Virus record (IMG/VR): IMGVR_UViG_3300025924_000017
Span: 1-64,000 of that record
DNA length: 64,000 nt
Reading direction: 5' to 3' (one strand)
From: a virus
Taxonomy: Duplodnaviria; Caudoviricetes
Under the pieces are notes generated by a model, which saw nothing but the letters and a program-made list of their open reading frames with translations, ran no database searches and was not told where the DNA came from. Shown piece by piece: positions 47,551 to 62,364 of the stretch. Made by a program: the position numbers and the translations under genes. The stretch's first letter is position 1. Each line of letters starts with the position of its first letter.

Positions 47551-47564
47551 GGCCCCGGCGGCGG

Positions 47565-48354: not shown

Positions 48355-48572
48355 GCAGCGATGCGAGCCTCCTGCCGGGCCATCCGCGCGGCAGCACCCA
48401 CCACAAGCGCGGCGAGCGCGCCGGTCGGCGTGTGTCCGTTGCGGCGCAAACGTGCCACCGTGTTCAATAGCCCGGCGGTAGACCCGCGCGGGGTCTCGAC
48501 CGGCGCGTAATGGATCAGGCAGGCGTCTGCCGCCCCGTAGCGTGTGATGCTATCGCGTTTCCAGCGGGTCAT
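48336..48572 (-). CDS. hypothetical protein
   Basis: MTRWKRD.. Confidence 0.55.
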   Translation of the reverse strand: MTRWKRDSITRYGAADACLIHYAPVETPRGSTAGLLNTVARLRRNGHTPTGALAALVVGAAARMARQEARIAAWPACA

Positions 48573-48576
48573 GCGA

Positions 48577-48969
48577 TCACTGCCCCGGCGCGAGATAGAA
48601 CCGAATCCACTGCGCCACGACCGGGCCATTACCCTTGAAGCCGTCCTCGGACGCTTCCGCCACCCGGGCGATTTCGTCCCATGACTGGTCCGCGCCATCG
48701 GTCGCGAACTGAGCCGCCGCCTCGTGCACGTAATTCGACCCGTAACCGGTCAGCGGGTTTGCCAGAAACGCTCCGCAATTTTCGCAGTGCTGGGGCGTAT
48801 CCGCCTCACCGCCTCCGTAGGAGTAGGGGCCTTTTGGGAACGCATCCGACTCATAGGTGACTTCGTCCGCGATGTTGGCGGGCGCTTTGCCCTCGGCGGT
48901 CAGATCACGCCGGATGGCATTGCCGCAATCTTCACAGTAGAGCGCGGCCCGGTAGACAAAAGCTTTCAT
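48577..48969 (-). CDS. conserved phage early protein (YCEDC..DTPQHC..CG..L.NPLT)
   Basis: GGAGTCGCAAATG start. Confidence 0.75.
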   Translation of the reverse strand: MKAFVYRAALYCEDCGNAIRRDLTAEGKAPANIADEVTYESDAFPKGPYSYGGGEADTPQHCENCGAFLANPLTGYGSNYVHEAAAQFATDGADQSWDEIARVAEASEDGFKGNGPVVAQWIRFYLAPGQ

Positions 48970-49000
48970 TTGCGACTCCGTTGGTTCTTGATTGTGCGCC

Positions 49001-49063
49001 CTTGTAGCATGGAATTATTTTGTCTGTCAAGGGTTGACAGTTCAGATTTCGCCGTGCTAGAAC
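49001..49063. promoter_or_regulatory. back-to-back sigma70 promoter pair
   Basis: TGTCAA-GGG-TTGACA 49025-49039 with a -10 on each side. Confidence 0.8.
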
Positions 49064-49091
49064 AGCGTCACAACGAAAAACGGAGTCGCGA

Positions 49092-49301
49092 ATGAAACGG
49101 AAAGGTGTAACGGGTTTGAAACTGTGGCGCGCCCGCGTCCAGAAAGTCTACGCCTCGCTGGCCGAACTGCGGGCCTATGACGAGACGTTCGAGATCGTGA
49201 AGCGCTGCGGCTATCGCAACGCGGAATCGCTGTGGAACGCCAACCCCCTATTGCAGGGTTCGACCCACCCGGCGGATTTTGGAGTCGCAAATGCACACTG
49301 A
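49092..49301 (+). CDS. hypothetical protein
   Basis: GGAGTCGCGAATG start. Confidence 0.7.
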   Translation: MKRKGVTGLKLWRARVQKVYASLAELRAYDETFEIVKRCGYRNAESLWNANPLLQGSTHPADFGVANAH

Positions 49302-49491
49302 CGAATTCTGCAAGACCTTGGACGCCTTGGATCGCGCGGACGCGATCAAGGCCATTCACGCCGCTTTCCTCCAACTGAGCGCGATGGGCGTGCAGGTCGA
49401 AGTCAACGGCACGACCTATGACAATGAGCCCGCCATCTCGCGGCTGAAAGCCTGCATGGTCTCCGCCGGTCACATCGGGTTCACGTCATGA
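49291..49491 (+). CDS. hypothetical protein
   Basis: GGAGTCGCAAATG start. Confidence 0.7.
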   Translation: MHTDEFCKTLDALDRADAIKAIHAAFLQLSAMGVQVEVNGTTYDNEPAISRLKACMVSAGHIGFTS

Positions 49492-49790
49492 CGGCGCGCC
49501 GGGGCACACGCTCGATCCTGCCGAACAGCAACAGCGCCATCCTCGCGCCGATGGCTTACGGGCTACAAGTCCGCTGGCACGAAGAACTGGACTCGCATGT
49601 GCTCTACCACGGCGAGCAGCGCGTGGCGGGCCATCACAACGGCTTTTCCTGCCACGAACTCGCCAAGCGCATCCTGTCCGGCAATGCCGAACGCGCGACG
49701 GCGCAATTCGACTACATCACCGCGTGTGGCGGTCAGCATTACATCACACACGAAGCCTTCGCAACCATCCTCACAGGAGTCACACACTGA
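49488..49790 (+). CDS. hypothetical protein
   Basis: ATGA overlap. Confidence 0.65.
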   Translation: MTARRGTRSILPNSNSAILAPMAYGLQVRWHEELDSHVLYHGEQRVAGHHNGFSCHELAKRILSGNAERATAQFDYITACGGQHYITHEAFATILTGVTH

Positions 49791-49791
49791 C

Positions 49792-49917
49792 ATGCATACC
49801 CGGCACCACGGCCACGGCCATCACGGTGGCGCGGGCTTCGCGCTCCTCGCCTTCATCCCCGGCTATCGGTTTTTCCTGATGCTGATGGCCTTGATCGTGA
49901 TGTGCGGCGGGACGTGA
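49792..49917 (+). CDS. His-rich small membrane protein, paralog 1
   Basis: MHTRHHGHGHHGG..PGYRFFLM..CGGT. Confidence 0.65.
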   Translation: MHTRHHGHGHHGGAGFALLAFIPGYRFFLMLMALIVMCGGT

Positions 49918-49940
49918 TCCCACCGCCGTCCGGCACTTGC

Positions 49941-49967
49941 GTTAACTGTTCGCGGCGATTGGTAAAC
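49941..49967. repeat. 27-bp palindrome
   Basis: GTTAACTGTT-N7-ATTGGTAAAC. Confidence 0.8.
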
Positions 49968-50128
49968 GCGGGCGAACCGCCGGGCTCAGTCCTCCGGGTA
50001 TGTGGTGGCGCGCGCCGCCTTGTCCCACGAGTAGACATGGAACGCGCGATCAGTTGGGAGAATGAGCCTCATCAACTGGTAAGAGGCCTCAAGATCAATC
50101 GCGCGGGCCAATGCTTCGTATAGGGCTT

Positions 50129-50479
50129 TCATGCGGCGGCGCGCGCCTCGCGTACGACCTCAGCCCATAACGCCTTGCACTCGGCGCGATGCTTCGCCGC
50201 CGCCCCGGGCGTGAACTGGGATTCGAAACTGTCACAGCCCTTCATGAGTTTCCCCAACTGATTGTTGAGCGCGATGGACTCAAAAAGCCCGGTGGTTTTG
50301 TCGCCCGCATTGCGCATGCGGCCCGTGTAGACGATCCAGAGGAAGTCCACGCCCTCAGTTTTGTCATAGGCCGCTTGCCACGCTTCGGGCGTGCCAGCCT
50401 TCACGGCTTCCATGTGGAAGTGTGCGATGGTTTCCGCCAGCACACCCTCACCCAGCAAAAAATCGGCGTGGGACTTCAT
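50129..50479 (-). CDS. hypothetical protein
   Basis: ATGA overlap. Confidence 0.65.
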   Translation of the reverse strand: MKSHADFLLGEGVLAETIAHFHMEAVKAGTPEAWQAAYDKTEGVDFLWIVYTGRMRNAGDKTTGLFESIALNNQLGKLMKGCDSFESQFTPGAAAKHRAECKALWAEVVREARAAA

Positions 50480-50649
50480 GCGGCGGCCTTGTCATACTGG
50501 ATTTTGACGCCGAGACCCTTCGCCTCCCGGTACCACACCGGGTAGATCGAGACCGCTCCCCACGGTTTTGTCTCCGTGACCCAGTAGGTCCACTTCAAGC
50601 GCTCGCTCGGCAACCGCCGATAAGCACGCACCAGAAATTCCGATTTCAT
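50476..50649 (-). CDS. hypothetical protein
   Basis: GGAGTCGCAAATG start. Confidence 0.7.
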   Translation of the reverse strand: MKSEFLVRAYRRLPSERLKWTYWVTETKPWGAVSIYPVWYREAKGLGVKIQYDKAAA

Positions 50650-50679
50650 TTGCGACTCCGTGTGTGTTGTTGTGCCGGT

Positions 50680-50740
50680 CTTATCGCATAAAAGATTTTG
50701 TCCGTCAAGTGTTGACATTCACAAAGCGCCCGGCTATAAC
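50680..50740. promoter_or_regulatory. back-to-back sigma70 promoter pair
   Basis: CGTCAA-GTG-TTGACA; -10 GATAAG (-) and TATAAC (+). Confidence 0.8.
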
Positions 50741-50774
50741 CACGCCACAACAACGAACCAACACGGAGTCGCAA

Positions 50775-51281
50775 GTGAATCACGAACTCAGGATCAAATA
50801 CGGCACTAGCCGCGCCGCCAATACCTACGGTTACGGGCTTGTGAGCCTGTACGACGGCGGTAAGAAAGTCGCGGCCTGCAACGGCGGCGGTTACGACATG
50901 CGCGGGACGGTGTTCGGCGAATGGCTCGAAAAGACCTATCAGGAACGCCTCGTCGCGCTGGCGAAGGCAACCAAGGGCGCATTTGCGCGCGCCAACTGGA
51001 ACGGCGAACTGGGTGACGAGTCGAATTACGTCCGCCTCCCCGCTGATCGCAAGGTCGAGCTTTACGGCGGCACCTATTACGAGAACGGCAGCCGCGAGAG
51101 CGTTCACGGCCGCAAGGGTGCCCAGAAATACATCGCCAAGCCGCCGCATGTGACGTTGGATGGCGGTTGCGGGTTCGAGTCGATTTACCGGATCGCCAAG
51201 GCCATCGGCCTCAACGTCCGCACGGTTGACGCTGGGAAGAAACTCGACATCCTCCTGATCGAGGACACGAAACCCGGGTAA
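50775..51281 (+). CDS. conserved phage early protein
   Basis: GGAGTCGCAAGTG start; CNGGGYDMRGTVFG..LDGGCG. Confidence 0.75.
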   Translation: MNHELRIKYGTSRAANTYGYGLVSLYDGGKKVAACNGGGYDMRGTVFGEWLEKTYQERLVALAKATKGAFARANWNGELGDESNYVRLPADRKVELYGGTYYENGSRESVHGRKGAQKYIAKPPHVTLDGGCGFESIYRIAKAIGLNVRTVDAGKKLDILLIEDTKPG

Positions 51282-51368
51282 CAGTTGCGTCACGCCTGCG
51301 CCCTGCGTTCCCAAGACGCGCAGGCTTGACACTCCGGCGGATGCGCCCGCGAAGCCATCCGCAAGCCT

Positions 51369-51408
51369 GCCCCGGCGCTGGATCACTCCGGCGTCGGGGC
51401 TCTTTTTT
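51369..51408 (+). terminator. intrinsic terminator
   Basis: 14-bp stem with G-U pairs, then TCTTTTTT. Confidence 0.75.
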
Positions 51409-51416
51409 CTTGGGAT

Positions 51417-51443
51417 GTTAACCAGTCGCGTCGATTGGTAAAC
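51417..51443. repeat. 27-bp palindrome
   Basis: GTTAACCAGT-N7-ATTGGTAAAC. Confidence 0.85.
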
Positions 51444-51462
51444 GCGGGTGGCGCGGGCGCGC

Positions 51463-51846
51463 TCAGGTGATCTCGCGCCCGGTGTCGGCACACACGACCG
51501 GCTCATCTTCCTCCGCCATGCAACCGAGCGCCACGACGCGCCAGCCATCGCGCAGATTGAGCCGGACGGCTTCGAGCACGTCGCGCAGGTGTGCGCGGAC
51601 CGCCTCATAGCTCAATATCTCGCCGTCCGAGGTCATGAAGAAACACTCATAGCCGCCGGGCCAAGCGAACTTGCCCGCGCGCAGGGCCGACTTGACCTGC
51701 TGCATCCCTTTCAGGCCCAGAACGAAGTCGCGGCCGTGCACCGCGTAAGCCGCACGCAGCGGCGGCAGCTTGTTCCAGTCCGTGACCCGGGTGTCGTAGA
51801 GATCGCCGCCGGTCGCGACGAACAGGTGATCTGGCAGCTTGCTCAT
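51463..51846 (-). CDS. conserved phage early protein
   Basis: LRAGKFAWPGGY..FMTSDGE.LS motif. Confidence 0.7.
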   Translation of the reverse strand: MSKLPDHLFVATGGDLYDTRVTDWNKLPPLRAAYAVHGRDFVLGLKGMQQVKSALRAGKFAWPGGYECFFMTSDGEILSYEAVRAHLRDVLEAVRLNLRDGWRVVALGCMAEEDEPVVCADTGREIT

Positions 51847-52187
51847 AGCAGCACCGTGACCAGTGTCGGCGTGCGCGCTGAGTCCTCTTCCTTGCGGCTG
51901 TCGTAGGGCGTGCGGCCGAGCGCGAACGCCATGACGTCGAACTGTGGGCAATCGCGACCGCCGTTCTTGATGGTCCTGCCACTGTCATGGAAGCACACGT
52001 CCACGCAATCCGCCGGGCCGCCCTTGACATAGGGCTGGAACGCAAACGTCACGCGTTTGCCGTTGCTGAGCTTGGCGGTGATCGTATAGTTGCCATCCGG
52101 AACTTCCACGCACAGATGCGGGTTGGCGTTGAACCCGGCGAAACCCGCCGCGACCGCCTCGTCTTGGGATGCTTCCTTGAAATTCAT
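51843..52187 (-). CDS. hypothetical protein
   Basis: GGAGTCGCAAATG start. Confidence 0.72.
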   Translation of the reverse strand: MNFKEASQDEAVAAGFAGFNANPHLCVEVPDGNYTITAKLSNGKRVTFAFQPYVKGGPADCVDVCFHDSGRTIKNGGRDCPQFDVMAFALGRTPYDSRKEEDSARTPTLVTVLL

Positions 52188-52212
52188 TTGCGACTCCGTT
52201 TGTTGTGCGCCT

Positions 52213-52273
52213 CTTATAGCAGCAATTATTTTGTCCGTCAAGTGTTGACATTCAAAAATGTCCGGGCTATAAC
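52213..52273. promoter_or_regulatory. back-to-back sigma70 promoter pair
   Basis: ATTATTTTGTCCGTCAAGTGTTGACA; TATAAG (-), TATAAC (+). Confidence 0.85.
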
Positions 52274-52302
52274 GGCCGCAACAAACACAAACGGAGTCGC
52301 AA

Positions 52303-52731
52303 ATGGCAAAGCTTTCTGCAAACGGCCGCACGATTGTTGGCAGCATCGATTACATCGCCAGCACAAAGCGCGTCATGTCCGATGGCGTCATTCTGGAGAA
52401 CAAGGGCCACGGCTGGAAGGTCGCGGGCAAGGTGAAGCCGGGCTTCACACCCGAGCAGGCTTTCACGCAGGGCAAGGCCAAGCATGAAGCCACACTCGCC
52501 GCGCGTCCTGCGTTGGCGGCCTATCGCGCCGCCCTGCATGACGCCTGCGGGCTCGCCAAGCGCTGGGCGCTCCACACCGCGATCACCTTGATGCCGGACG
52601 ACCCGGATGGCGTGTGGTCGAACTGCGTGGACAGCTATCCCAAAGTCGATGCGGACCTCGATGACATCGTGAGGCTTTGCGGGCTCTACACCCGCGCCAA
52701 GGCAGAGAAGGAGGAGGCGGCGGTCGCGTAA
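52303..52731 (+). CDS. hypothetical protein
   Basis: GGAGTCGCAAATG start. Confidence 0.75.
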   Translation: MAKLSANGRTIVGSIDYIASTKRVMSDGVILENKGHGWKVAGKVKPGFTPEQAFTQGKAKHEATLAARPALAAYRAALHDACGLAKRWALHTAITLMPDDPDGVWSNCVDSYPKVDADLDDIVRLCGLYTRAKAEKEEAAVA

Positions 52732-52748
52732 GCGCCGCCAGCGCGCAC

Positions 52749-52775
52749 GTTTACCAATTGCGGAGATTGGTTACC
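52749..52775. repeat. 27-bp palindrome
   Basis: GTTTACCAAT-N7-ATTGGTTACC. Confidence 0.85.
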
Positions 52776-52817
52776 GCGCGGTATGCGGGCGCGGGGCTCC
52801 AAGCCGCGCCGGTTTGG

Positions 52818-53234
52818 TCAACAATCCGGATCGAAGTCGTGCCACTCCTGCACCTCGTCGGGCTGGCCGTCGTGCTCGTATTCGCCTTCGCCCTCCGGGG
52901 CCAGTAGGGTGGCATCCTGTTCCGGGTCCACGCCAATCTCATGATCGACCGGAAAGCCGCATGAGAAGCCGGACTCGAAGTCCACGCGGATGCAGTGTGC
53001 GCCCTCGTACTCGACTTTCTCGACGGTCTCGAACTCGAACTGGAATTCGGGATGCTCGCTCTTCAGTTGCGGGCTCTCCTCCTTGTTCTCGCACGCGTCG
53101 AAATAAGCTTCGTCGGCGAACCGATCCGCTTCAAGGTCGCAACGCTGGCCGACGCGCAACTGATTCACCCGGCACTTGACGACGCCTTGCCGCTCGACCG
53201 TGTTGACCGTGTTCGATCCGTCGCCCCGGCTCAT
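52818..53234 (-). CDS. acidic hypothetical protein
   Basis: ATGA overlap; ends DGQPDEVQEWHDFDPDC. Confidence 0.7.
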   Translation of the reverse strand: MSRGDGSNTVNTVERQGVVKCRVNQLRVGQRCDLEADRFADEAYFDACENKEESPQLKSEHPEFQFEFETVEKVEYEGAHCIRVDFESGFSCGFPVDHEIGVDPEQDATLLAPEGEGEYEHDGQPDEVQEWHDFDPDC

Positions 53235-53491
53235 TGCACGACCTCCGACGCATCGACAAACACCCAATGGTGCGTTGCCTCAAAGCGAAACAGCGAACGC
53301 GGCTTTTCCGCCAGCGTGCGCAGGTCGCCCTCGGCGAGCATGTCCGGCGTGGCGGTGACCACAAGACACGGCCCCTGACCGCCCGGCACGGACTTGACCG
53401 GCGTTCCCGCCGGGATCGTGAGATCGTAGCCGAATTGCGGCGCGGAACTACCCGGCACCCAGCGCTTCGTGATCGTTTCCTTGATCTGCAT
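53231..53491 (-). CDS. hypothetical protein
   Basis: GGAGTCGCAAATG start. Confidence 0.72.
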   Translation of the reverse strand: MQIKETITKRWVPGSSAPQFGYDLTIPAGTPVKSVPGGQGPCLVVTATPDMLAEGDLRTLAEKPRSLFRFEATHHWVFVDASEVVQ

Positions 53492-53523
53492 TTGCGACTC
53501 CGTTTTTCGTTTTCAGTGACGCC

Positions 53524-53584
53524 CTTATAGCCGAAAGAAATTTGTCCGTCAAGTGTTGACAATTCAAAATCGTTCGGCTATATC
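53524..53584. promoter_or_regulatory. back-to-back sigma70 promoter pair
   Basis: CGTCAA-GTG-TTGACA; TATAAG (-), TATATC (+). Confidence 0.8.
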
Positions 53585-53590
53585 TATGCA

Positions 53591-53714
53591 CGACACGGGG
53601 ATGGGGCCGTACGGTAAGCCCCTGCGGCGCGGAAGACGCCAAGGCCCCCGGTGCTGGTCCCACGGAAAGACCAACGGCAAGGGGTTCACCGGCCCCGCGC
53701 CCAAAAGATTGAAC
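53591..53714 (+). ncRNA. structured 5' leader, riboswitch-like candidate
   Basis: About 130-nt leader versus about 25 nt in sibling units; nested stems GGGGCCG/CGGCCCC and TGGTC/GACCA. Confidence 0.45.
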
Positions 53715-53724
53715 GGAGTCGCAA

Positions 53725-53967
53725 ATGAGCATTTCCCTGAATACCAACCTCACCGACGCGGGCGTCGTTTGCACTTTCGCCGACACCGGCGAATATGCAG
53801 GCATCGTGCGCTCCTCGATCACCAAAGGCGGCGGGATTGAGTGGCTGGCTTGCCCGGCCTTCGGCTTCGGCGTGAACCAGTTGTTCAGCGATCTGATAGC
53901 CGCCGAGTACCTGATCCTCGCATGGGCCATCGAAGCCCGCGCGAAGTCGCTGAGCGTGGCGGGCTGA
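53725..53967 (+). CDS. hypothetical protein
   Basis: GGAGTCGCAAATG start. Confidence 0.7.
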   Translation: MSISLNTNLTDAGVVCTFADTGEYAGIVRSSITKGGGIEWLACPAFGFGVNQLFSDLIAAEYLILAWAIEARAKSLSVAG

Positions 53968-53968
53968 T

Positions 53969-54160
53969 ATGGGCACGTGGCTGGACGACCTCAAGAAGAC
54001 CGATCCGGCACTCGCCGCCGACTGGGCGATTGTCGGCAACCAGAGCAGGGCTTCGCTGCGCAACATGGTCCGCGCGCTCGAAATCATGCCGCGCCTGAAT
54101 ACCGACGAGGACAACAAGCGGCTCGCCGCCGCTAAGCGCATCCTCAAGGCTAAGAGCTAA
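53969..54160 (+). CDS. conserved small phage protein
   Basis: IVGNQ..LRNMVRAL..LNTDEDNKRL.AA. Confidence 0.7.
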   Translation: MGTWLDDLKKTDPALAADWAIVGNQSRASLRNMVRALEIMPRLNTDEDNKRLAAAKRILKAKS

Positions 54161-54243
54161 CCGCCCGCGACGGCCAAGCGGGCAACCGGGACTTGTGGCG
54201 CGGTGCAGCACCGATCCGCGCCTGCCCGGCAGCTTACCCACAC

Positions 54244-54270
54244 GTTTACCAATTGCCGCTATTGGTTACC
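54244..54270. repeat. 27-bp palindrome
   Basis: GTTTACCAAT-N7-ATTGGTTACC. Confidence 0.85.
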
Positions 54271-54284
54271 GGCCCGTGAACGCC

Positions 54285-54509
54285 TCACACGTTCGCGGAG
54301 TCGTCGAACGCGTGAGGGTTGACGTGCGACGGATCGACCGACGCATGAAAGACGACCGTGTCGCCCGGCATGATCTCAGCGACCGCGCGCGCATCGTAGC
54401 GGCGGTGGATGAAGTCCGGCGCACCGAACACACGGCGCGCCGCCTCAAAGTGGGCGTCCTTGCCCTGATCGGGATGCACGACGCCGATGAAATGAACCGC
54501 GCTCTTCAT
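54285..54509 (-). CDS. conserved small phage protein
   Basis: Likely start MKSAVHFIG..ARRVFGAPDFIHR.YD.RA..DTVVF. Confidence 0.65.
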   Translation of the reverse strand: MKSAVHFIGVVHPDQGKDAHFEAARRVFGAPDFIHRRYDARAVAEIMPGDTVVFHASVDPSHVNPHAFDDSANV

Positions 54510-54733
54510 GCTGCTTTCTCCCGTAATTGCATCAACAGGCGTTGCGCCACACGCATCTCGCGGCCGTGACGATACGCGCCCGGAACGGTGGTGCATTCGT
54601 CGTCTAGGGCGGCGCTTGCCGCTTTCAGGGCTTCAGCGCCGAACTCTTTGAGAATGGAGTCCAGCGCGGCATCTCTGGCTTGGATGCACTCACCTGCTTC
54701 GCGTATCGCCTTGTCGCTCCAATCGTGACTCAT
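54506..54733 (-). CDS. hypothetical protein
   Basis: AGG RBS, overlap chain. Confidence 0.6.
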   Translation of the reverse strand: MSHDWSDKAIREAGECIQARDAALDSILKEFGAEALKAASAALDDECTTVPGAYRHGREMRVAQRLLMQLREKAA

Positions 54734-54734
54734 C

Positions 54735-54947
54735 CTAGTTCACCCGGATGGTTTCGACGTACGCGGCGATCTTGTCGCCAAGCACCGCATCCGTGATCGC
54801 CGGGTCAGCCGCGATGGCAGCCTCGCCGACGCGAAAGATTTTGGGAATGTCCATGATGCCGATCTGGACACCGCCGCACCGCGCGTTATAGGCGCGGTCG
54901 ATGCGGGCCTCGTTGATCTTTTCCTGCTTCGACTGTCTCTTGGGCAT
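54735..54947 (-). CDS. hypothetical protein
   Basis: GGAGTCGCAAATG start. Confidence 0.72.
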
Positions 54948-54983
54948 TTGCGACTCCGTTGTGGTTTGTTTGATTGTGACGCT

Positions 54984-55044
54984 GTTCTAGCATGGATTAT
55001 TTTGTCCGTCAAGTGTTGACATTCACAAAACGACCGGCTATAAC
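54984..55044. promoter_or_regulatory. back-to-back sigma70 promoter pair
   Basis: 26-mer identical to 52225-52250; TAGAAC (-), TATAAC (+). Confidence 0.85.
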
Positions 55045-55068
55045 AGCAGCACAACAACGGAGTCGCAA

Positions 55069-55308
55069 ATGAACCCTGAAGTGGATTTTGATTTTCACCA
55101 GAGCTTTTCGCTCACGATGGTCTACTGCATGAACCCGAACGCCTTGGCGCATATGCAGGAGCACACCGGCGACGAAGCCCAGTGGATGGGCGACGGCATC
55201 GCCGTCGAGAACCGCTATGCACCGGACCTGAGCGCCGAACTTTGCCGCGCAGGCTTCACGGTCGGACTGCCGGACGGTCGCGTCGTGACGGCGGAGGACC
55301 TGCGCTAA
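55069..55308 (+). CDS. hypothetical protein
   Basis: GGAGTCGCAAATG start. Confidence 0.72.
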   Translation: MNPEVDFDFHQSFSLTMVYCMNPNALAHMQEHTGDEAQWMGDGIAVENRYAPDLSAELCRAGFTVGLPDGRVVTAEDLR

Positions 55309-55784
55309 TGAACGAGCGCATCGAATTCGTGCGGGCCTACATCGCCGTGCAATGCACCGCGCCGGACGGCACGACCGGGGACTTTCTGTTCCGGAAGAAT
55401 GACAAGGGCGAGCGTGAACTGATCTCGCCCGTGTTCGCGGACCTGTCACCGCTGCATGACTGGCTGGAAATGAACGGTTGGGAACAGGAATCGTTTGACT
55501 CGCTGCATCCTGTTGGCGTGTTCCGCCGCGATCCGGATTACTGGTATCACAACAGCAACGAACTCCAGTGCGAGCGCATTTTCCGGACGGACGGCGGCAT
55601 CGTGAAATTGGACCACGGCGTCCCCGGCGATGGCACGCGGTGGCGTGTCGCGGACTGGACCGGCAAGAAGTTCGAGCACGATACGGGCTGGGCCTATTAC
55701 GAGAACACGATAGAGCCTTGCGATCTGATCGACCGTTTGCCAGACGATTGGGACAAGAAACAGCCTCGCAAAACGGCAGGCTGA
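55308..55784 (+). CDS. hypothetical protein (possibly two domains)
   Basis: GGAGG RBS, TAATG coupling. Confidence 0.7.
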   Translation: MNERIEFVRAYIAVQCTAPDGTTGDFLFRKNDKGERELISPVFADLSPLHDWLEMNGWEQESFDSLHPVGVFRRDPDYWYHNSNELQCERIFRTDGGIVKLDHGVPGDGTRWRVADWTGKKFEHDTGWAYYENTIEPCDLIDRLPDDWDKKQPRKTAG

Positions 55785-55823
55785 GGCGACCGGCGCGGGA
55801 GATTGCGACTCTCCCCGCGCCGT
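55785..55823 (+). terminator. GC-rich hairpin with TTGCGAC loop
   Basis: 39 bp identical to 56976-57014; follows the stop codon. Confidence 0.65.
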
Positions 55824-55835
55824 GTTCGCGACCGC

Positions 55836-55862
55836 CTTAACCAATTGCGGCGACTGGTTAAT
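55836..55862. repeat. 27-bp palindrome
   Basis: CTTAACCAAT-N7-ACTGGTTAAT. Confidence 0.8.
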
Positions 55863-55972
55863 ACGAGGCTGGAAACAGACGGCGGATCGCAAGTCCGGAT
55901 GCGCCCCGGAAGTTCCGGGCTGGTGGGCTGTCTCCCACGAGGTGCACCTTACAACCGCCGTCTCAACTGATG
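55863..55972 (-). ncRNA. candidate multi-branched small RNA
   Basis: Own leftward promoter, no RBS or ORF; 9-bp closing stem 55877-55885/55955-55963 enclosing three hairpins. Confidence 0.5.
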
Positions 55973-55977
55973 CACAC

Positions 55978-56038
55978 ACCCTAGCGCAGGAAAGCTTTAT
56001 TGTCAACCCTTGACAGACGAAATAATCCCCGCTATAAG
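55978..56038. promoter_or_regulatory. back-to-back sigma70 promoter pair, inverted orientation
   Basis: 56001-56026 is the reverse complement of 49014-49039 (25/26). Confidence 0.8.
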
Positions 56039-56063
56039 AGCGCCACAACCAACGGAGTCGCAA

Positions 56064-56756
56064 ATGTCCGAACACATCGCACACACCGAGCACGACGAGG
56101 AAACCGGCGTCACGCTCAAAATCATCAACGATCCGCATGGCAGCGAGTCGCCCCTCGAACACGATAGCGCGGTGATCTTCGCGGTCCTGCACCGGCGGTA
56201 CATCAACCCGGCGAAAGACGCGGCTGCGTACAAGCGCAACGGCGACTCTTACGACTTCACCACGGTCGAAGGCATTGCGGAATTCGAGAAGGCGAACGGC
56301 GCGATCAACGCGCAGTGGGCCGTGTTCCCGTTGTTCATGTACGATCATTCGGGCACGATCTACAGCGCCAGTTCCGGAGCCAATCCGTTCCACTGTCCAT
56401 GGGACTCGGGCCGCGTCGGTATTATCGCGCTTAAGAAGAGCGAAGTCGGTAAGCCCGGCAAGAAAGTCCGCAACGCCAAGCGCGAAGTGGTCTACACCGT
56501 AGGCAGCTATCTGGAACAGGCGCAAGCCGTCGCCAAGAACTACACCGACTGGGCCAACGGCAACATTTGGGGCTATGTGGTCGAAGACGCGGACGGCGAG
56601 CACATCGACTCGTGTTGGGGCTTCATCGGCGATCACGACGACGAACACCTGATGGCAGAAGCCCACAGCGCCTATCACGACGCGATCAAGGACGCGAACG
56701 CGGCGAACGCCCGCGACCTCGAAGCCGACCGCGCCGATATGTATGCGGGGGCGTGA
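56064..56756 (+). CDS. conserved phage early protein
   Basis: PLFMYDHSG..CPWDSGRVG..W.NG.IWGY..DSCWGFIG; GGAGTCGCAAATG start. Confidence 0.78.
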   Translation: MSEHIAHTEHDEETGVTLKIINDPHGSESPLEHDSAVIFAVLHRRYINPAKDAAAYKRNGDSYDFTTVEGIAEFEKANGAINAQWAVFPLFMYDHSGTIYSASSGANPFHCPWDSGRVGIIALKKSEVGKPGKKVRNAKREVVYTVGSYLEQAQAVAKNYTDWANGNIWGYVVEDADGEHIDSCWGFIGDHDDEHLMAEAHSAYHDAIKDANAANARDLEADRADMYAGA

Positions 56757-56965
56757 TGGCGAAGCCACGGCGGCAGACGCTATGGAGCTACACGGTCGCG
56801 GCGACGGGCCAGACTATCGAGCCCGTCAACCTCTACCTGCTTCCCGGCGTGCGCTACGCCCTGCGCGCGCTTCACGGCGCGGACGGCTTCAGCGAGCGCC
56901 TCTTAGGTCAAGGCCGCCTCATGAGTGACGGCACTGTGACCGACCTGATACCGCCGCCGGGTTGA
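56756..56965 (+). CDS. hypothetical protein
   Basis: TGATG coupling. Confidence 0.6.
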   Translation: MAKPRRQTLWSYTVAATGQTIEPVNLYLLPGVRYALRALHGADGFSERLLGQGRLMSDGTVTDLIPPPG

Positions 56966-56975
56966 CCGGCGACGT

Positions 56976-57014
56976 GGCGACCGGCGCGGGAGATTGCGAC
57001 TCTCCCCGCGCCGT
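56976..57014 (+). terminator. GC-rich hairpin with TTGCGAC loop
   Basis: Identical to 55785-55823. Confidence 0.65.
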
Positions 57015-57028
57015 TTCGCTTAAGAGGC

Positions 57029-57055
57029 CTTAACCAATTGGCGTGATCGGTTAAC
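57029..57055. repeat. 27-bp palindrome
   Basis: CTTAACCAAT-N7-ATCGGTTAAC. Confidence 0.8.
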
Positions 57056-57056
57056 G

Positions 57057-57117
57057 TTGATAGCGCGGATTATTTTGTCCGTCAAGTGTTGACAATCAAA
57101 AATCTCTGTGCGATAAG
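57057..57117. promoter_or_regulatory. back-to-back promoter pair; left arm has no gene
   Basis: 26-mer identical to 52225-52250. Confidence 0.8.
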
Positions 57118-57141
57118 ACGCCCACAAACACGGAGTCGCAA

Positions 57142-57375
57142 ATGAAGCCGATCACGAGAATAGCAACGTTCGACGGAAAAGAGCACCGCGATGCACTCGC
57201 AGCAGAGCGCCACCTAGACGAGGAATTCGGTCGGCGCGTGTCGGCGCTCGGTCACAAGTTCGCGCCTGCGGGTGTGAAGTACAGCGAGTTCCACAAGCTG
57301 GTCGAGGAGAACCTGCACGTGTTCGCAGAGCTTCTCCGGATCAAGGCCGACTTGAAAATCGAGGAGGAGGATTGA
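57142..57375 (+). CDS. hypothetical protein
   Basis: GGAGTCGCAAATG start. Confidence 0.72.
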   Translation: MKPITRIATFDGKEHRDALAAERHLDEEFGRRVSALGHKFAPAGVKYSEFHKLVEENLHVFAELLRIKADLKIEEED

Positions 57376-57588
57376 ATGGCGCACGAATGGAAGCGCTGCG
57401 GACTCCTGCGGTTTGACTCCGGGGTCCGCACGGTGTGGAAAAGACCGCGCGATGATCGAGAATCGGGGTTTGTGTTCCAGTCCACACGCAACCCCGATAT
57501 TGAACCCGCCCCCGGCTGCGGCGGGTATTACGACGCGCACGGCATGGCGAGGTCCGCCGGTGGGCGGTTGGAATTGACAGAGGATTGA
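57376..57588 (+). CDS. hypothetical protein
   Basis: GGAGG RBS. Confidence 0.6.
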   Translation: MAHEWKRCGLLRFDSGVRTVWKRPRDDRESGFVFQSTRNPDIEPAPGCGGYYDAHGMARSAGGRLELTED

Positions 57589-57603
57589 GGGCCGATCAGG
57601 TCC

Positions 57604-57640
57604 CGCGCCCGCCGCCGATTGCGACCCGGCGGCGGGCGCG
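57604..57640 (+). terminator. perfect 14-bp hairpin with ATTGCGACC loop
   Basis: CGCGCCCGCCGCCG / CGGCGGCGGGCGCG. Confidence 0.65.
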
Positions 57641-57654
57641 TTTGCGTTGGTCGC

Positions 57655-57681
57655 GTTAACCAGTCACCGCAATTGGTAAAC
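57655..57681. repeat. 27-bp palindrome
   Basis: GTTAACCAGT-N7-ATTGGTAAAC. Confidence 0.85.
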
Positions 57682-57693
57682 GCGCGCGCCGCC

Positions 57694-57840
57694 CTACCTC
57701 GGCGCGATCTCACCCAGCCGCTTGAGCCAGCCCTGCGTGTTGAACCACGCGCACACGGTTGGCATGAACCAAAGGCGCGAGCTTTGGCCGCTGTTCTGAA
57801 ATGCGGCTTCCCACATGATCGCCTGACCGAGGTGCTTCAT
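57694..57840 (-). CDS. hypothetical protein (48 aa)
   Basis: ATGA overlap; hand translation MKHLGQAIMW.. Confidence 0.5.
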   Translation of the reverse strand: MKHLGQAIMWEAAFQNSGQSSRLWFMPTVCAWFNTQGWLKRLGEIAPR

Positions 57841-58175
57841 GCAACCACCCCGGCCAGAATTCCATCCGCCAGCGCCGCACGCTTTGCGCGCATCGTGTGC
57901 GCCGGATCGTGGTCCGAAATGTAGGCCGCGAAGTAGCGCTCGTCGAACTTGAAAAAGCCAAGCCGCACGTCGGCCGTGGTCGCCTCGCAGATGGCGAAGC
58001 CCACGCTCGTGTAGTGCATCGGCGGCAGCATTTCGAGAAAGTACCAGTAGGTTTCCTCGTCTACTTCCACAAACCCGGCGAGCAGCCGGGCGCGGTCGAA
58101 GCGCTGGGCATGCGGAAGCTCCGGATTGAGCCAGCCGTAAAACCCGTCCTTATCGAATTTGCCTTCGAACTTCAT
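57837..58175 (-). CDS. DUF1419-like protein
   Basis: EVDEETYWYFLEMLPP..FAICE; GGAGTCGCAAATG start. Confidence 0.65.
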   Translation of the reverse strand: MKFEGKFDKDGFYGWLNPELPHAQRFDRARLLAGFVEVDEETYWYFLEMLPPMHYTSVGFAICEATTADVRLGFFKFDERYFAAYISDHDPAHTMRAKRAALADGILAGVVA

Positions 58176-58201
58176 TTGCGACTCCGTTTGTTTGCAGGCA
58201 C

Positions 58202-58263
58202 CTTATCGCATAAAACATTTTGTCTGTCAACAGTTGACAATTCAAATTCTGCCGTGCTATAGA
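58202..58263. promoter_or_regulatory. back-to-back sigma70 promoter pair
   Basis: TGTCAA-CAG-TTGACA 58225-58239. Confidence 0.78.
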
Positions 58264-58291
58264 GGCGGCACAAACAGAAACGGAGTCGCAA

Positions 58292-58684
58292 ATGAAGTAT
58301 GCAGTCAATGAACAAGGGCAGGTCACCTGCGACGGCGAGCCTATGCTCGTACTCGCGCAGGCCGTTTGGGGCGATGGTGCGCCGAGCGCCGCCGCCCGGG
58401 ATGTTGCCCAGCAGCGCGCCAAAGACGCTTTCAAGGCGCTGGAGTTGATCGAACGCCTCGCCCGCATGGGTTTTTACGCCTACCCGGACGGCGAAAGCTT
58501 TTCCGACGCGCAGGCCGAAGACGCGCTGGTCGTGCTCAACCAGATGATCGAGAACGCGCGCAAGCTTGCCCCGGATGCAGTCCCCGGCCCATATATCACG
58601 ACCGGGCACGACCTCGACGGCGACGGGCCTTGGTATGCGCCGGGCATCGGCGAAGTCGAAGCCCCGCAGGAGGATCAGCCATGA
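58292..58684 (+). CDS. hypothetical protein
   Basis: GGAGTCGCAAATG start. Confidence 0.72.
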   Translation: MKYAVNEQGQVTCDGEPMLVLAQAVWGDGAPSAAARDVAQQRAKDAFKALELIERLARMGFYAYPDGESFSDAQAEDALVVLNQMIENARKLAPDAVPGPYITTGHDLDGDGPWYAPGIGEVEAPQEDQP

Positions 58685-58749
58685 TCTAGCACGACGGCGA
58701 AGTCCTCGACCTCGGTTTGCGTTCCACAGCGGAACGCCGACCGGGCTGA
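58681..58749 (+). pseudogene. relic paralog of 59271..59429
   Basis: ATG ATC TAG CAC GAC GGC GAA GTC CTC versus ATG CCC TAC CAT GAC GGC GAA GTC CTC. Confidence 0.55.
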
Positions 58750-58753
58750 GGCC

Positions 58754-58780
58754 CTTAACCAATTACCGCAACCGGTTAAC
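58754..58780. repeat. 27-bp palindrome
   Basis: CTTAACCAAT-N7-ACCGGTTAAC. Confidence 0.8.
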
Positions 58781-58829
58781 GCCCGCGACGAGAGAGGGCA
58801 GCGCGGCCTTACGACCGCGCTGGACCTCC

Positions 58830-58994
58830 TCACTCCATTTCCTCTGCCCCATCCTGCACCGTGTGCGCGGTAATGTCGTAACGCTCTAGTTGCGCGTTCA
58901 CGGCATCCATTGCAGCACCGACGCCGGTCTCTGCTTCGCTCCTTGAGTCCGCCGCGATCACGAACGCGACCGTAACAATGAACTGTTTTCCCAT
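58830..58994 (-). CDS. hypothetical protein (54 aa)
   Basis: GGAGTCGCAAATG start; hand translation MGKQFIVTV.. Confidence 0.68.
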   Translation of the reverse strand: MGKQFIVTVAFVIAADSRSEAETGVGAAMDAVNAQLERYDITAHTVQDGAEEME

Positions 58995-59026
58995 TTGCGA
59001 CTCCGTTGTTTGTTTTCAGTACGGTT

Positions 59027-59088
59027 GGTATAGCACGACGGATTCTAAAATGTCAACACTTGACGGACAGAATAATTTGTGCGATAAG
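59027..59088. promoter_or_regulatory. back-to-back promoter pair, inverted orientation
   Basis: 59051-59076 is the reverse complement of 52225-52250 (25/26). Confidence 0.8.
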
Positions 59089-59116
59089 GTTCGCACAACA
59101 ACCAACGGAGTCGCAA

Positions 59117-59284
59117 ATGAAGTATGATTTTCGGACAGCCGACAACGCCGCTAAGCCCCACGTCGCTGTTGTGGAAGTGGAGAGCGGCGAGACGGCTGCA
59201 ATTGTCTACATCAAAGACGGGAAAGTTGATGACGCTGAACGTCTGGCCGAGCTTTGCGTGGGGGTGTTCAATGCCCTACCATGA
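59117..59284 (+). CDS. hypothetical protein
   Basis: GGAGTCGCAAATG start. Confidence 0.7.
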   Translation: MKYDFRTADNAAKPHVAVVEVESGETAAIVYIKDGKVDDAERLAELCVGVFNALP

Positions 59285-59429
59285 CGGCGAAGTCCTCGGC
59301 CTCGACGCTGACGGTTGTGTGATCCAGTGGGACGCCGACCGGGGCGCGGCCTACAATTCCGGCGAGACGCTGGAAGAGTTCGGCGCGGACAATCTGCGCG
59401 CCCACGAACGCGGGAGGCTGGGCCTATGA
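59271..59429 (+). CDS. small acidic protein
   Basis: MPYHDGEVLG.. Confidence 0.6.
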   Translation: MPYHDGEVLGLDADGCVIQWDADRGAAYNSGETLEEFGADNLRAHERGRLGL

Positions 59430-59632
59430 GCAGTTGGATTTATCGCGTCGAGCTAAACGCACGCAAGGCCGGGGACATCGGCACGTTCACGCGCTGCACG
59501 TTCGATGTTATCGCCGAGCAGGCGCGCGGCGCGGATGGAGCGTACACCCGGGCCATCGCAAAGGCCACCGCGCACGGCTACGAAACACGCGGCGCAAATA
59601 GCGCTGTGCGTATGAGCGAGGTACACGCATGA
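59426..59632 (+). CDS. hypothetical protein
   Basis: GGAGG RBS, ATGA overlap. Confidence 0.62.
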   Translation: MSSWIYRVELNARKAGDIGTFTRCTFDVIAEQARGADGAYTRAIAKATAHGYETRGANSAVRMSEVHA

Positions 59633-59805
59633 GCGAAGACGCGATCAGCGGCAAAGACATCCGCGAGTTCCGGCTCTACTTGAAGCAATGCACCGACCGG
59701 CAGGTTGAGGGCGTGTTCGAGCGTGAGAAGGCCGCAGGCCGGGAGACGTATATGGAACTTGCCCGCGCCGAGGCCGAGCACCGGGGCATTACCATCTGGG
59801 GCTGA
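59629..59805 (+). CDS. hypothetical protein
   Basis: GAGG RBS, ATGA overlap. Confidence 0.58.
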   Translation: MSEDAISGKDIREFRLYLKQCTDRQVEGVFEREKAAGRETYMELARAEAEHRGITIWG

Positions 59806-59907
59806 CCACCATGTCATAAAATCCCCCAACTGTGACATGCCGAGTCAACGATTCCAACAGCTTAGGCCCTGCCTGTCACGTTTCACGAAACCTAGGAAAG
59901 GAAACCC

Positions 59908-60048
59908 ATGCATTCAGGCCATCACCGCCACCACGGCGGACATCATGGCGGGCACCACCTCGGCGCGCTCGCCTTCCTCGCCCTGCTTCCCGGCTATCGC
60001 TTCTTTTTGATGCTCGCCTTAGTCGTGGTCCTGTGCGGCGGCACCTGA
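59908..60048 (+). CDS. His-rich small membrane protein, paralog 2
   Basis: AAGGA RBS; MHSGHHRHHGGHHGGHH..PGYRFFLM..CGGT. Confidence 0.68.
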   Translation: MHSGHHRHHGGHHGGHHLGALAFLALLPGYRFFLMLALVVVLCGGT

Positions 60049-60093
60049 TACTGTCATTCAAGGGTTGACAATTGACCCCGGCCGTGCGATAAG
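60045..60093 (+). promoter_or_regulatory. sigma70-type promoter
   Basis: TTGACA 60065-60070; GC-GATAAG. Confidence 0.7.
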
Positions 60094-60141
60094 CCTTGCA
60101 ACGTCGGGATGACCCGGCGACAATCCAAACCGGAGTCGCAA

Positions 60142-60738
60142 ATGGCAAAAGAACAGTTCGCATTGCTCGCCGTGAATGAAACGGACAATTGGGACCAGTC
60201 CATTCTGGACAAGCACGGCTTTGAAGCCGCGTTCGGCGTCTACTTGATCCGCCTCGGCGAGGCCACGCATTGTTGCAGCCTCACCGCGTCAACGTGGGCC
60301 GAGTTTTACGAGAACGCCTTCATTTACGATCACGAAGACGCGGCGGCCGACAAAGCGGCGGAAGACCTCGCCCACGAGAACGGCGGCGAGTTCGGGCGCT
60401 ATCTCACCTACGTCGATCCTGACCAGAAGAGCCGCTACCTCGGCGCGGCGATCACGGTCGAAGTGGACGCGGATGAATTCGAAGGCGGCAAGAAATCCGA
60501 CGCCTATCACGAGGCAATCTGGACGGAAGCCCGCGAGGCCGCAGCCACCGGCGCGATCAGCGAACCGGCGATCCTGTGGAGCGAGGAATACTACGCCCAG
60601 CAGGAAGAGTACGCCGCCAAGCGACGCGCAGAGAACCGCAGGCCCTTGGCGCGCCCGATCCTGCCGTTGTTCTTCGCCGCCGCCCAGCGCGACGGATTCG
60701 CCACGTACGAAGGCGCAATCGAGCACGGCTGGCTTTGA
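60142..60738 (+). CDS. acidic hypothetical protein
   Basis: GGAGTCGCAAATG start. Confidence 0.75.
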   Translation: MAKEQFALLAVNETDNWDQSILDKHGFEAAFGVYLIRLGEATHCCSLTASTWAEFYENAFIYDHEDAAADKAAEDLAHENGGEFGRYLTYVDPDQKSRYLGAAITVEVDADEFEGGKKSDAYHEAIWTEAREAAATGAISEPAILWSEEYYAQQEEYAAKRRAENRRPLARPILPLFFAAAQRDGFATYEGAIEHGWL

Positions 60739-60824
60739 TCCTGCGCGTGCCCTGCCACGGGCCACGCAGTACACCGGCCCGGCGCTGCCTGTCACGGCAC
60801 GCCGGGCCGGAGCATTTTGGGCGC

Positions 60825-60873
60825 ATTATTTTGTCCTAAAGGTGTTGACAATTGGATTCCGCCCGGCTATAAC
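60825..60873 (+). promoter_or_regulatory. sigma70-type promoter with no conventional gene downstream
   Basis: ATTATTTTGTCC; TTGACA 60845-60850; GC-TATAAC. Confidence 0.75.
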
Positions 60874-61001
60874 ACCGCCATGCCTCGCGGCGACAGAGCA
60901 GGACCTCTGGAAGGCGCGGCGCGAAGTCCTCCCGGGAAAGCCCGCCAGACGCGGGATCGCAGGGAGGCCGGGACACGCGGACCCGCCGATCTGCGCCGAG
61001 C

Positions 61002-61076
61002 CTACCTTGCGCGATATCGTGCGCTACCGTGCGCACTACCTTGCGCGCTACCGTTCGCTGGCACGATCTGGGGCGC
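61002..61076 (+). repeat. CTACC tandem cluster
   Basis: 5 units; 61024-61076 matches 62233-62285 at 50/53. Confidence 0.8.
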
Positions 61077-61103
61077 GCGCCGTCCGGCGCGGCCTGTGCC
61101 CGC

Positions 61104-61174
61104 GTTTACCAGTTGGAAGGATTGGTTAACGCCGCCTCGGAGTCCGCGTTAACCAATTGCGGCTATTGGTTAAG
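61104..61174. repeat. two 27-bp palindromes
   Basis: Copies at 61104 and 61148. Confidence 0.85.
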
Positions 61175-61238
61175 ACCATCGCAAATTTTGTTAACCATAG
61201 GGCGTGCCGATCTGGCACGCCCACGATCTGCCGCGTGG

Positions 61239-61691
61239 CTAGGCGCTCTCCTCCTTTCGAGCCTTGACGCGCACGTAGGGCTTCTCCTCGTAGTGATCGA
61301 TCTTCTCGCCGGAGGGAAGGTCCCACGGCATGAGCATGAAGGTCACGCCAAAGGGATGGAATTCCGCGTTCTGGGGCGACAGGTTTTCAGCCTTCATGTA
61401 ACTGGCGATGTACCAGTCGCGCGCGTCACCCTCGAACGTGAAGCAGGTCTTGTTGGAGCGCAGACGATACGCAGGCAACGCGCCCACCAGATAGATGGCA
61501 TGATCCGTATAGGTGTCACCAGCCTTGAACTGCCCACGGCGCACGCCGTCCATCTCTGCCGTGTAGGTGTTCGTGCGATCATACTCCGCACCTTCGTAAG
61601 TCACACCACTGATCGTGACGGACACGGGCTTGATGTTGGAGAGATGGCCGAGGGATGCGAGGTAGGCCACGACGTTTGCGGAAACAGACAT
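61239..61691 (-). CDS. hypothetical protein
   Basis: GGAGTCGCAAATG start. Confidence 0.75.
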   Translation of the reverse strand: MSVSANVVAYLASLGHLSNIKPVSVTISGVTYEGAEYDRTNTYTAEMDGVRRGQFKAGDTYTDHAIYLVGALPAYRLRSNKTCFTFEGDARDWYIASYMKAENLSPQNAEFHPFGVTFMLMPWDLPSGEKIDHYEEKPYVRVKARKEESA

Positions 61692-61715
61692 TTGCGACTC
61701 CGTTGTTGTGCGCAC

Positions 61716-61776
61716 TTTATGGCATGCCTTGTTTTGTCTGTCAAGGGTTGACATATAGAATTCTTCGCGCTATAAC
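61716..61776. promoter_or_regulatory. back-to-back sigma70 promoter pair
   Basis: TGTCAA-GGG-TTGACA 61739-61753; CATAAA (-), TATAAC (+). Confidence 0.8.
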
Positions 61777-61802
61777 GGCAGCACAAACAAACGGAGTCGC
61801 AA

Positions 61803-62198
61803 ATGATCTCACACGCAGACGTTCTCAAAATCGACCGCGCCATCTCCGGCAAGCTGGTCGAGCTTGCCATCGCCAAAGGCTACAGCCTGACCGTCCGCAC
61901 GAACGACGACGACGCGCACAACGTCATCAAGTCGCGCGATCCGAAGGTGATCCTCGACGAACTTCATTCCGTGGACGACGAGCGCCTCTATGTGCACGAT
62001 GCAAACGGAAAGCGCCTCGGCTGGATTTACTTCGTGTTCGGCGAATCCGGCTGGGACGTGATCTGCGATCACACCACAGGCCGGGCGATCACGGAACTGG
62101 TGGACACAGGCCCGATCAAGGCGATCTCGGATGGTATCTGCGAGAACCCGGAGAACTGGAGCGCGATACTCGCGCAGAACGGCGCGGCAGTCGGCTGA
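61803..62198 (+). CDS. conserved phage early protein
   Basis: GGAGTCGCAAATG start; GYSLTV..DDERLY..GWIYFVFG..DVICDH. Confidence 0.75.
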   Translation: MISHADVLKIDRAISGKLVELAIAKGYSLTVRTNDDDAHNVIKSRDPKVILDELHSVDDERLYVHDANGKRLGWIYFVFGESGWDVICDHTTGRAITELVDTGPIKAISDGICENPENWSAILAQNGAAVG

Positions 62199-62200
62199 GC

Positions 62201-62285
62201 CTACGGCGCGCTACCGTTCGCTGGCGCGCTTCCTACCGTGCGCGCTACCTTGCGCTCTACCGTTCGCTGGCGCGATCTGGGGCGC
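62201..62285 (+). repeat. CTACC tandem cluster
   Basis: Units at 62201, 62211, 62233, 62245, 62257. Confidence 0.8.
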
Positions 62286-62337
62286 TGGCGCGCGCCAGCC
62301 CGGCGGCGGCGGTATGGTTAACGAAAATCGCCCCGGC

Positions 62338-62364
62338 GTTAACCAATTCAGTGTATTGGTTAAC
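62338..62364. repeat. 27-bp palindrome
   Basis: GTTAACCAAT-N7-ATTGGTTAAC, perfect arms. Confidence 0.9.

Follow-up and report, generated by a model that had tools for sequence, protein, structure and literature searches.

The locus studied here lies between two genes of the plus strand. On the left is a 158-aa gene (55308-55784, as called on the JGI contig), the GC content of which by codon phase (0.60/0.42/0.77) shows coding periodicity; no relatives of its product were found in IMG/VR. On the right is a 230-aa gene, whose product matches phrog_6186 (E = 3.9e-35) and has 203 homologues. The gap between them, which holds a 116-nt insert and a two-way promoter (the 56002 cassette), is the longest without genes in 8.7 kb of gene calls, and the remaining gaps in these 8.7 kb are explained by promoter and terminator modules. 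A 440-aa open reading frame (ORF) on the minus strand runs across the region. The gene calls of the JGI contig do not include it, and it runs antisense to a gene that has hundreds of homologues.

The record is a 225,611-bp virus of IMG/VR, and the 64-kb stretch that was analysed (the window) covers its bases 1-64000. The gene for the large terminase (TerL, 43805-46540) contains an intein. In its C-terminal part TerL shares 62% identity with the large terminases of Caulobacter phage phiCbK and Brevundimonas phage Bajun, and the protein is 911 residues long, compared to 910 in phiCbK. Thirty tRNA genes in arrays and a permuted tmRNA gene are located at genome positions 93149-102408 and 163220-166246; all of them sit elsewhere in the genome and none is inside the window. 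The tmRNA is of the two-piece type with tag VANDNEPEALRFAA, consistent with an alphaproteobacterial host. Given the TerL identity, the tRNA genes and the permuted tmRNA, the phage is a phiCbK-like giant siphophage, uncultivated and with an alphaproteobacterial host. The stretch that follows TerL in phiCbK is a direct terminal repeat of ~10 kb with many small unknown genes (PMC3556154; PMC9437464).

Promoter cassettes and module boundaries

Ten two-way promoter cassettes were found in the post-terminase region between 49 and 62 kb, and the cassette region extends to about 64.4 kb. The core of a cassette is a palindrome with two -35 hexamers 3 bp apart; the window has 14 matches to this pattern, where 0.31 would be expected. 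Seventeen of the 20 arms share one design: the -35 hexamer is followed after 17-18 nt by a GC(T/G)ATAA(G/C) block and then by a near-invariant leader, which ends in GGAGTCGCAA and an ATG about 45-55 nt downstream. One more arm, 53548 R, brings the number with a leader to eighteen; here roughly 125 additional nt displace the leader to 167 nt downstream. This extra stretch (53585-53727, plus strand) is GC-rich, lies between the -10 and the leader, has a fold z-score of +0.26 and shows no similarity to the insert at 55862-55977. The palindromic core of the 56002 cassette occupies 56000-56015, with the leftward TTGACA as the reverse complement of 56001-56006 and the rightward TTGACA at 56010-56015. 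The rightward arm (56010-56066, plus strand) is canonical, as it has the -35, a TATAAG -10, the conserved leader and the ATG of the 230-aa gene.

The borders between modules are made up of a family of 27-bp palindromes and of GC-rich terminator hairpins. The palindromes have the form TTAACCAAT-N7-ATTGGTTAA, and at least 14 copies are present between 46.6 and 62.4 kb (46617-62363), in which the arms are conserved and the 7-nt centre varies. The copy at the present locus has its TTAACC...GGTTAA core at 55837-55861 (27-bp extent about 55836-55862); the initial annotation had correctly placed such a palindrome beyond the presumed RNA. Constant arms around a variable centre are more easily reconciled with a protein that binds DNA as a dimer than with termination of an RNA. 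The arm is similar to a CtrA half-site, although the spacing is not that of TTAA-N7-TTAA (cf. PMC9437464). To the left of the palindrome lies the GC-rich terminator hairpin of the convergent rightward operon (55785-55823, plus strand), which folds on both strands and is identical in 39 of 39 nt to 56976-57014.

The leftward promoter and the 116-nt insert

The promoter elements that the initial annotation assigned to the leftward arm (56002 L) were recovered at the same positions: TGTCAA at 56001-56006 reads TTGACA on the minus strand, and ACCCTA at 55978-55983 reads TAGGGT. The -35 is perfect and the spacer to the -10 is 17 nt, in keeping with the cassette rule of TTGACR plus 17-18 nt. The -10 block, GCTAGGGT (55978-55985, minus strand, with the hexamer at 55978-55983), does not fit GC(T/G)ATAA(G/C). 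On a -10 profile built on the leader-bearing arms it scores -2.4 bits, compared to 6.4-13.6 for the other 19 arms; this is the worst rank of the 20, and 5.5% of random 8-mers score equally well. It was also stated that the arm lacks a start motif, and indeed the conserved leader, a start codon and a called gene are all absent from the minus strand; within about 55 nt there is no GGAGTCGCAA leader, Shine-Dalgarno site or start codon.

The deviating -10 recurs. TTGAC followed at 15-18 nt by GCTAGGG has four copies in the genome against 0.13 expected, which makes this subclass as frequent as some canonical -10 variants, and the other three copies all precede ORF starts. Downstream of the copy at genome position 218623 (plus strand) are a Shine-Dalgarno site and the TTG (218678) of a 256-aa ORF, and the copy at 106553 (minus strand) is followed by an ATG near 106490. 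The copy at 26530 (GCTAGGGG) has the ATG of a 95-aa ORF (26565-26852) at +1, 7 nt past the hexamer, which suggests a leaderless mRNA. Because four copies are present where 0.13 are expected and the other three stand before ORFs, we take GCTAGGG as a real -10 subclass, and the leftward promoter appears credible. Transcription from the leftward arm is thereby probable. By the usual sigma-70 spacing of about 7 nt past the -10, the same rule that puts the ATG of ORF 26565-26852 at +1, the predicted start would be at 55971-55973 on the minus strand.

Between this promoter and the boundary palindrome lies the insert (55862-55977, 116 nt), the candidate RNA body on the minus strand. Alignment with a paralogous junction at 56976-57145 shows the same terminator hairpin and boundary palindrome entirely without the insert; there the leftward -10 abuts the palindrome, whereas here 116 nt intervene. 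The 116 nt are therefore additional sequence that fits exactly into the space between the promoter and the boundary. The insert is single-copy: no second copy was found in the 225.6-kb genome by short-word blastn, six-frame tblastn or a covariance model. Its GC content at the three codon phases is 0.59/0.64/0.66. The spread of 0.07 compares with 0.41 +/- 0.09 for coding sequence (neighbouring genes and TerL), where not one of 129 windows of equal length was as flat. Its only ORFs are a 29-aa GTG ORF on the minus strand and ORFs of 55 and 63 aa on the plus strand, none with a ribosome site, and tblastn with the insert found no paralogue within the genome. In the absence of codon periodicity, and with ORFs of 29-63 aa without ribosome sites, the insert is not a gene, nor is it the remains of a sequence that coded until recently. 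On the plus strand about 55868-55892 matches the rightward leader at 19 of 25 positions with one gap, which is not significant against shuffles (p about 0.06). An anti-leader role of the RNA was also considered and rejected: its duplex energies with 26 conserved leaders were no better than those of shuffles (p = 0.36).

The paralogous junction contains a second arm without cargo, 57081 L (57030-57100). Its -10, GCTATCAA, scores 6.9 bits, inside the range of the working arms, and is followed immediately by the boundary palindrome and then the terminator hairpin. Both cargo-less arms, this one and 56002 L, face a sequence-identical 39-nt hairpin together with a boundary palindrome. Further to the left, within the 3' end of the upstream gene, the minus strand has a 6-bp hairpin (CAGCCU/AGGCUG) followed by a U-rich run (55745-55782), a possible stop for leftward transcripts that pass both earlier hairpins.

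This arrangement invites comparison with the oop RNA of phage lambda, a 77-nt antisense RNA made from promoter pO, which has an intrinsic terminator, overlaps cII and acts in an RNase III-dependent manner. As in lambda, a short ORF-less RNA would start at its own sigma-70-type promoter, located immediately downstream of an early gene, and converge on the 3' end of that gene. The oop terminator and the overlap with cII are proven, whereas the transcript described here is predicted from sequence; a folded 5' domain of 90 nt exists only here, and the two RNAs have no sequence relation. It could nevertheless be that leftward transcription itself is what matters: a transcript that converges on the rightward operon and is complementary to its 3' end and terminator would act through RNase III-type mRNA processing or transcriptional interference, and the folded insert would be only a protective 5' cap. 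We consider this unlikely. The leftward arm has the correct orientation toward the 3' end of the upstream gene, the identical hairpin and palindrome stand before both cargo-less arms, 57081 L has kept a family-grade -10 though cargo-less, and the hairpin with U-rich run at about 55745-55782 could provide an end. To get there the polymerase would have to read through the palindrome and the 13-bp GC hairpin (55785-55861), the terminator scan detected no U-tract terminator, and the insert would be unnecessary, as 57081 L has none.

Predicted fold of the minus-strand RNA and comparison with known RNA families

In the initial annotation the insert was drawn as a cloverleaf-like junction, in which a long-range stem encloses three hairpins and a palindrome. 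The individual pairings are all present: the 9-nt arms 55877-55885 and 55955-55963 are 100% complementary, CGCA/TGCG is found at 55888-55891/55900-55903, CCCGGA/TCCGGG at 55905-55910/55914-55919, GTGGG/CCCAC at 55923-55927/55934-55938 and the palindrome AGGTGCACCT at 55940-55949. As an RNA structure, the cloverleaf is not supported. It has an energy of -42.2 kcal/mol, 3.7 worse than the best fold (-45.9), and the ensemble favours a three-way junction. The pairing probability of the CGCA/UGCG hairpin is about 0 in the minus-strand ensemble, because it is outcompeted by a 7-bp extension of the closing stem with two G-U pairs. The favoured fold of the domain (55877-55963, minus strand) has a 16-bp stem, a three-way junction and two hairpins. 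The stem consists of P1 (55955-55963/55877-55885; pairing probability 0.99) and P1b (55948-55954/55887-55893, with the two G-U pairs; 0.95). Hairpin P3 (55923-55938) has a 5-bp GC stem and a 6-nt loop (1.00), and hairpin P4 (55905-55919) a 6-bp stem and a 3-nt loop (0.89).

The 110 nt of the minus strand fold with -46.9 kcal/mol and a z-score of -2.3, and a segment of 104 nt that begins at the predicted start has -2.6; the domain stays intact in a 188-nt context with the downstream hairpins (z -3.4). The plus strand has a z-score of only -0.96, and the better fold of the minus strand is strand-specific because P1b contains G-U pairs. In this genome 4.7% of the 110-nt windows fold at least as well, and perfect 9-bp inverted repeats with a loop of 40-100 nt occur at 0.048 per 110 nt. 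The predicted fold thus gives a moderate signal above chance. Fold energy alone is insufficient to mark the site; what is unusual is its combination with the position and the non-coding nature of the insert. No U-tract was found on the minus strand after the palindrome or after the GC hairpin, and the terminator scan found none, which leaves no clear intrinsic terminator to set the 3' end.

The insert was compared with known RNA families. Rfam gave no matches at the gathering thresholds for the whole window and none at E <= 10 for 55700-56100. ARAGORN at default settings reported no tRNAs in the window or in 55700-56100. At an 80% threshold it also labels the plain terminator hairpin as a tRNA, and the relaxed hits are for that reason meaningless. 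The fold is not that of a four-armed tRNA, as it has a three-way junction with loops of 6 and 3 nt and no 7-nt T-loop. A TROVE/Ro gene (PF05731) is absent from the 225.6-kb genome, in a search in which the positive controls gave hits; with no Rfam model match and no Ro60 partner gene, the RNA does not qualify as a Y RNA or YrlA. Like tRNA and YrlA, it would join a long stem of both ends to a branched domain, but it differs from them: the branches number three rather than four, a T-loop and an anticodon-like arm are missing, and there is no Ro/TROVE partner. That the insert encodes a tRNA-like or Y-RNA-like decoy is consequently extremely improbable, in spite of the multi-branch topology, the long closing stem and the richness of the phage in tRNAs (30 genes plus the permuted tmRNA). 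The tRNA-like decoy suggested in the initial annotation is contradicted by the default ARAGORN result, the empty Rfam search at E <= 10 and the absence of a cloverleaf. Its broader proposal of an early sRNA fared better: the non-coding insert, the credible promoter and the better fold of the minus strand were retained, and the cloverleaf and the tRNA likeness were not.

Relatives, origin and possible role of the insert

Homologues of the insert were searched for in the phage itself, in sister contigs, in phiCbK, by pattern in IMG/VR and in 401 alphaproteobacterial genomes, and none were found. A covariance model of the insert matched only itself in the phage, generic hairpins in related loci and, in phiCbK, a 17-bit match antisense within a CDS, which is noise. 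Pattern scans of IMG/VR with the twin-hairpin pattern and with two exact 18-20-mers gave no match, the leader 16-mer gave single matches only (chance level), and blastn of 2 kb around the site against INPHARED gave no match. A host-derived origin was rejected: the one 27-nt match in the 401 alphaproteobacterial genomes has a per-genome E of 7e-4, as expected by chance over that many genomes. This sample was centred on an unpublished metagenome-assembled genome (G001), which itself counts as one negative. At the loci of the nearest relatives of the 230-aa protein (55-57% identity) the upstream gaps share nothing with the insert. In two distant relatives (L025, 2680-3000; L028, 2600-3000) a motif of about 17 nt with GGGACCC in it is directly repeated 4-6 times in the gap before the homologue of the 230-aa gene; these repeats resemble an array of iterons or operators and are unrelated to the insert.

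A scan of metagenome contigs for the cassette signature yielded three contigs that share the promoter grammar (WNGK01006831.1, Ga0193752_1001867 and JGI11643J12802_10043294). They have the same promoter core and the GGAGTCGCAAATG leader with largely different cargo genes, and the insert is present in none of the three. One of them has a 60%-identical homologue of the 79-aa gene that lies two genes upstream of the site, and the cargo that follows it differs. The comparison indicates that the grammar of the cassettes is conserved while their contents turn over, as in rapid mosaic exchange.

The main rival to an RNA gene starts from this turnover: the insert would be functionless debris of module shuffling, a 116-nt remnant left behind a decaying promoter after the cargo was lost, with recombination at the shared promoter cores and boundary palindromes, and with a fold typical of GC-rich sequence. 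We hold it to be somewhat unlikely, though several observations fit it. The insert is an orphan and the sister contigs keep the grammar with other cargo. The -10 scores -2.4 bits when all other arms reach at least 6.4, the fold lies only in the top 5% of the genome windows, and a fold signal is absent from the second long non-coding insert (53585-53727). With 57081 L there is another arm that lacks cargo, and the weak leader likeness on the plus strand could be what is left of a rightward leader. That likeness is not significant, however, and the lack of codon periodicity argues against a recent coding relic. Random decay would not be expected to yield a -10 that belongs to a recurrent subclass found before genes, and the fold is strand-asymmetric, with four helices that are near-certain in the ensemble.

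The explanation that we tentatively favour, and which falls a little short of probable, is that the site is an orphan early phage sRNA. The promoter TTGACA-17 nt-TAGGGT would start a short cargo-less transcript of the minus strand near 55971. Its first 90 nt or so would form the 16-bp stem topped by the three-way junction and the two GC hairpins. The polymerase would then meet the boundary palindrome (55837-55861) as a first obstacle and the terminator hairpin (55785-55823) as a second, to give an RNA of roughly 95-190 nt, of which both ends are estimates. The compact 5' domain may serve as a module for stability or protein binding rather than as an antisense seed. In favour of an sRNA are the exact placement of the insert, its non-coding composition, the recurrent -10 subclass, the strand-specific fold and compact surroundings in which the other gaps are explained. 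Against it are the lack of relatives in the collections searched, a fold energy in only about the top 5% of genome windows, the outlying -10, the missing U-tracts, the empty Rfam search and 57081 L, which is cargo-less without any insert and so shows that an arm needs no product.

Orphan sRNAs are known from other phages. RNAC and RNAD of T4, a large lytic phage, are examples to which the insert RNA may be likened. Others are early non-coding transcripts of Pseudomonas phages (PMC8244752, PMC10914365), found by transcript mapping. Such RNAs are small, structured, restricted to a lineage and mostly of unknown function, and come from early or RNA-rich parts of large lytic phage genomes; the insert RNA would be similar in these respects. 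The known ones were detected experimentally, whereas the present one is a prediction from the promoter, the fold and the non-coding signal only.

A more far-reaching version would make both cargo-less arms, 56002 L and 57081 L, dedicated pre-early RNA genes with the same end hairpin, one of them with a Y-shaped 5' domain that binds or titrates a host factor. This is improbable; if true, the cargo-less arms would produce pre-early decoy RNAs of a class new among phages, and the factor bound or titrated at the start of infection could be, for example, a nuclease or a defence sensor. Returning to the orphan sRNA, its meaning would be more modest. In phiCbK-like phages the terminal-repeat and early region is the first DNA to be expressed and holds many unknown small genes. 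If real, the insert would be a non-coding product of this first-expressed region, and the standard promoter cassettes would carry RNA cargo as well as protein cargo. It is one candidate in an uncultivated phage and opens no long-standing question.

The position of the gap relative to TerL also allows for an element that acts as DNA and does not involve an RNA gene, namely the right boundary of a long direct terminal repeat or a site for packaging or replication. The TerL proteins of this phage and phiCbK are 62% identical and of near-equal length, and the repeat of phiCbK begins in TerL codon 652 and extends over 10,287 bp into a long non-coding gap, where it ends (PMC3556154). Transferred to this genome, the two points correspond to 45759 and about 56046, the latter inside the gap, and the right end of the phiCbK repeat sits in a GC-rich palindrome. 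This correspondence is one of arithmetic, however, and the repeat length varies among phiCbK-like phages (about 16.7 kb in Colossus; PMC3556154). Sequence similarity to the phiCbK repeat boundaries was not found, and the cassette region continues to about 64.4 kb, beyond the supposed repeat end. We regard a DNA-level element as very unlikely.

The phiCbK gap that holds the right end of the repeat, between gp020 and gp021, has no sequence or covariance-model similarity to the insert. It is like the present gap in its equivalent distance from TerL and in being a long gene-free gap of the early/repeat region. Within it lies a strong intrinsic terminator for which the annotation shows no gene upstream, and the 116 nt before this terminator (JX100813.1, about 10339-10454; L036, 1040-1155) fold with a z-score of -4.7. 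The gp020-gp021 gap may thus contain an unannotated short transcription unit.
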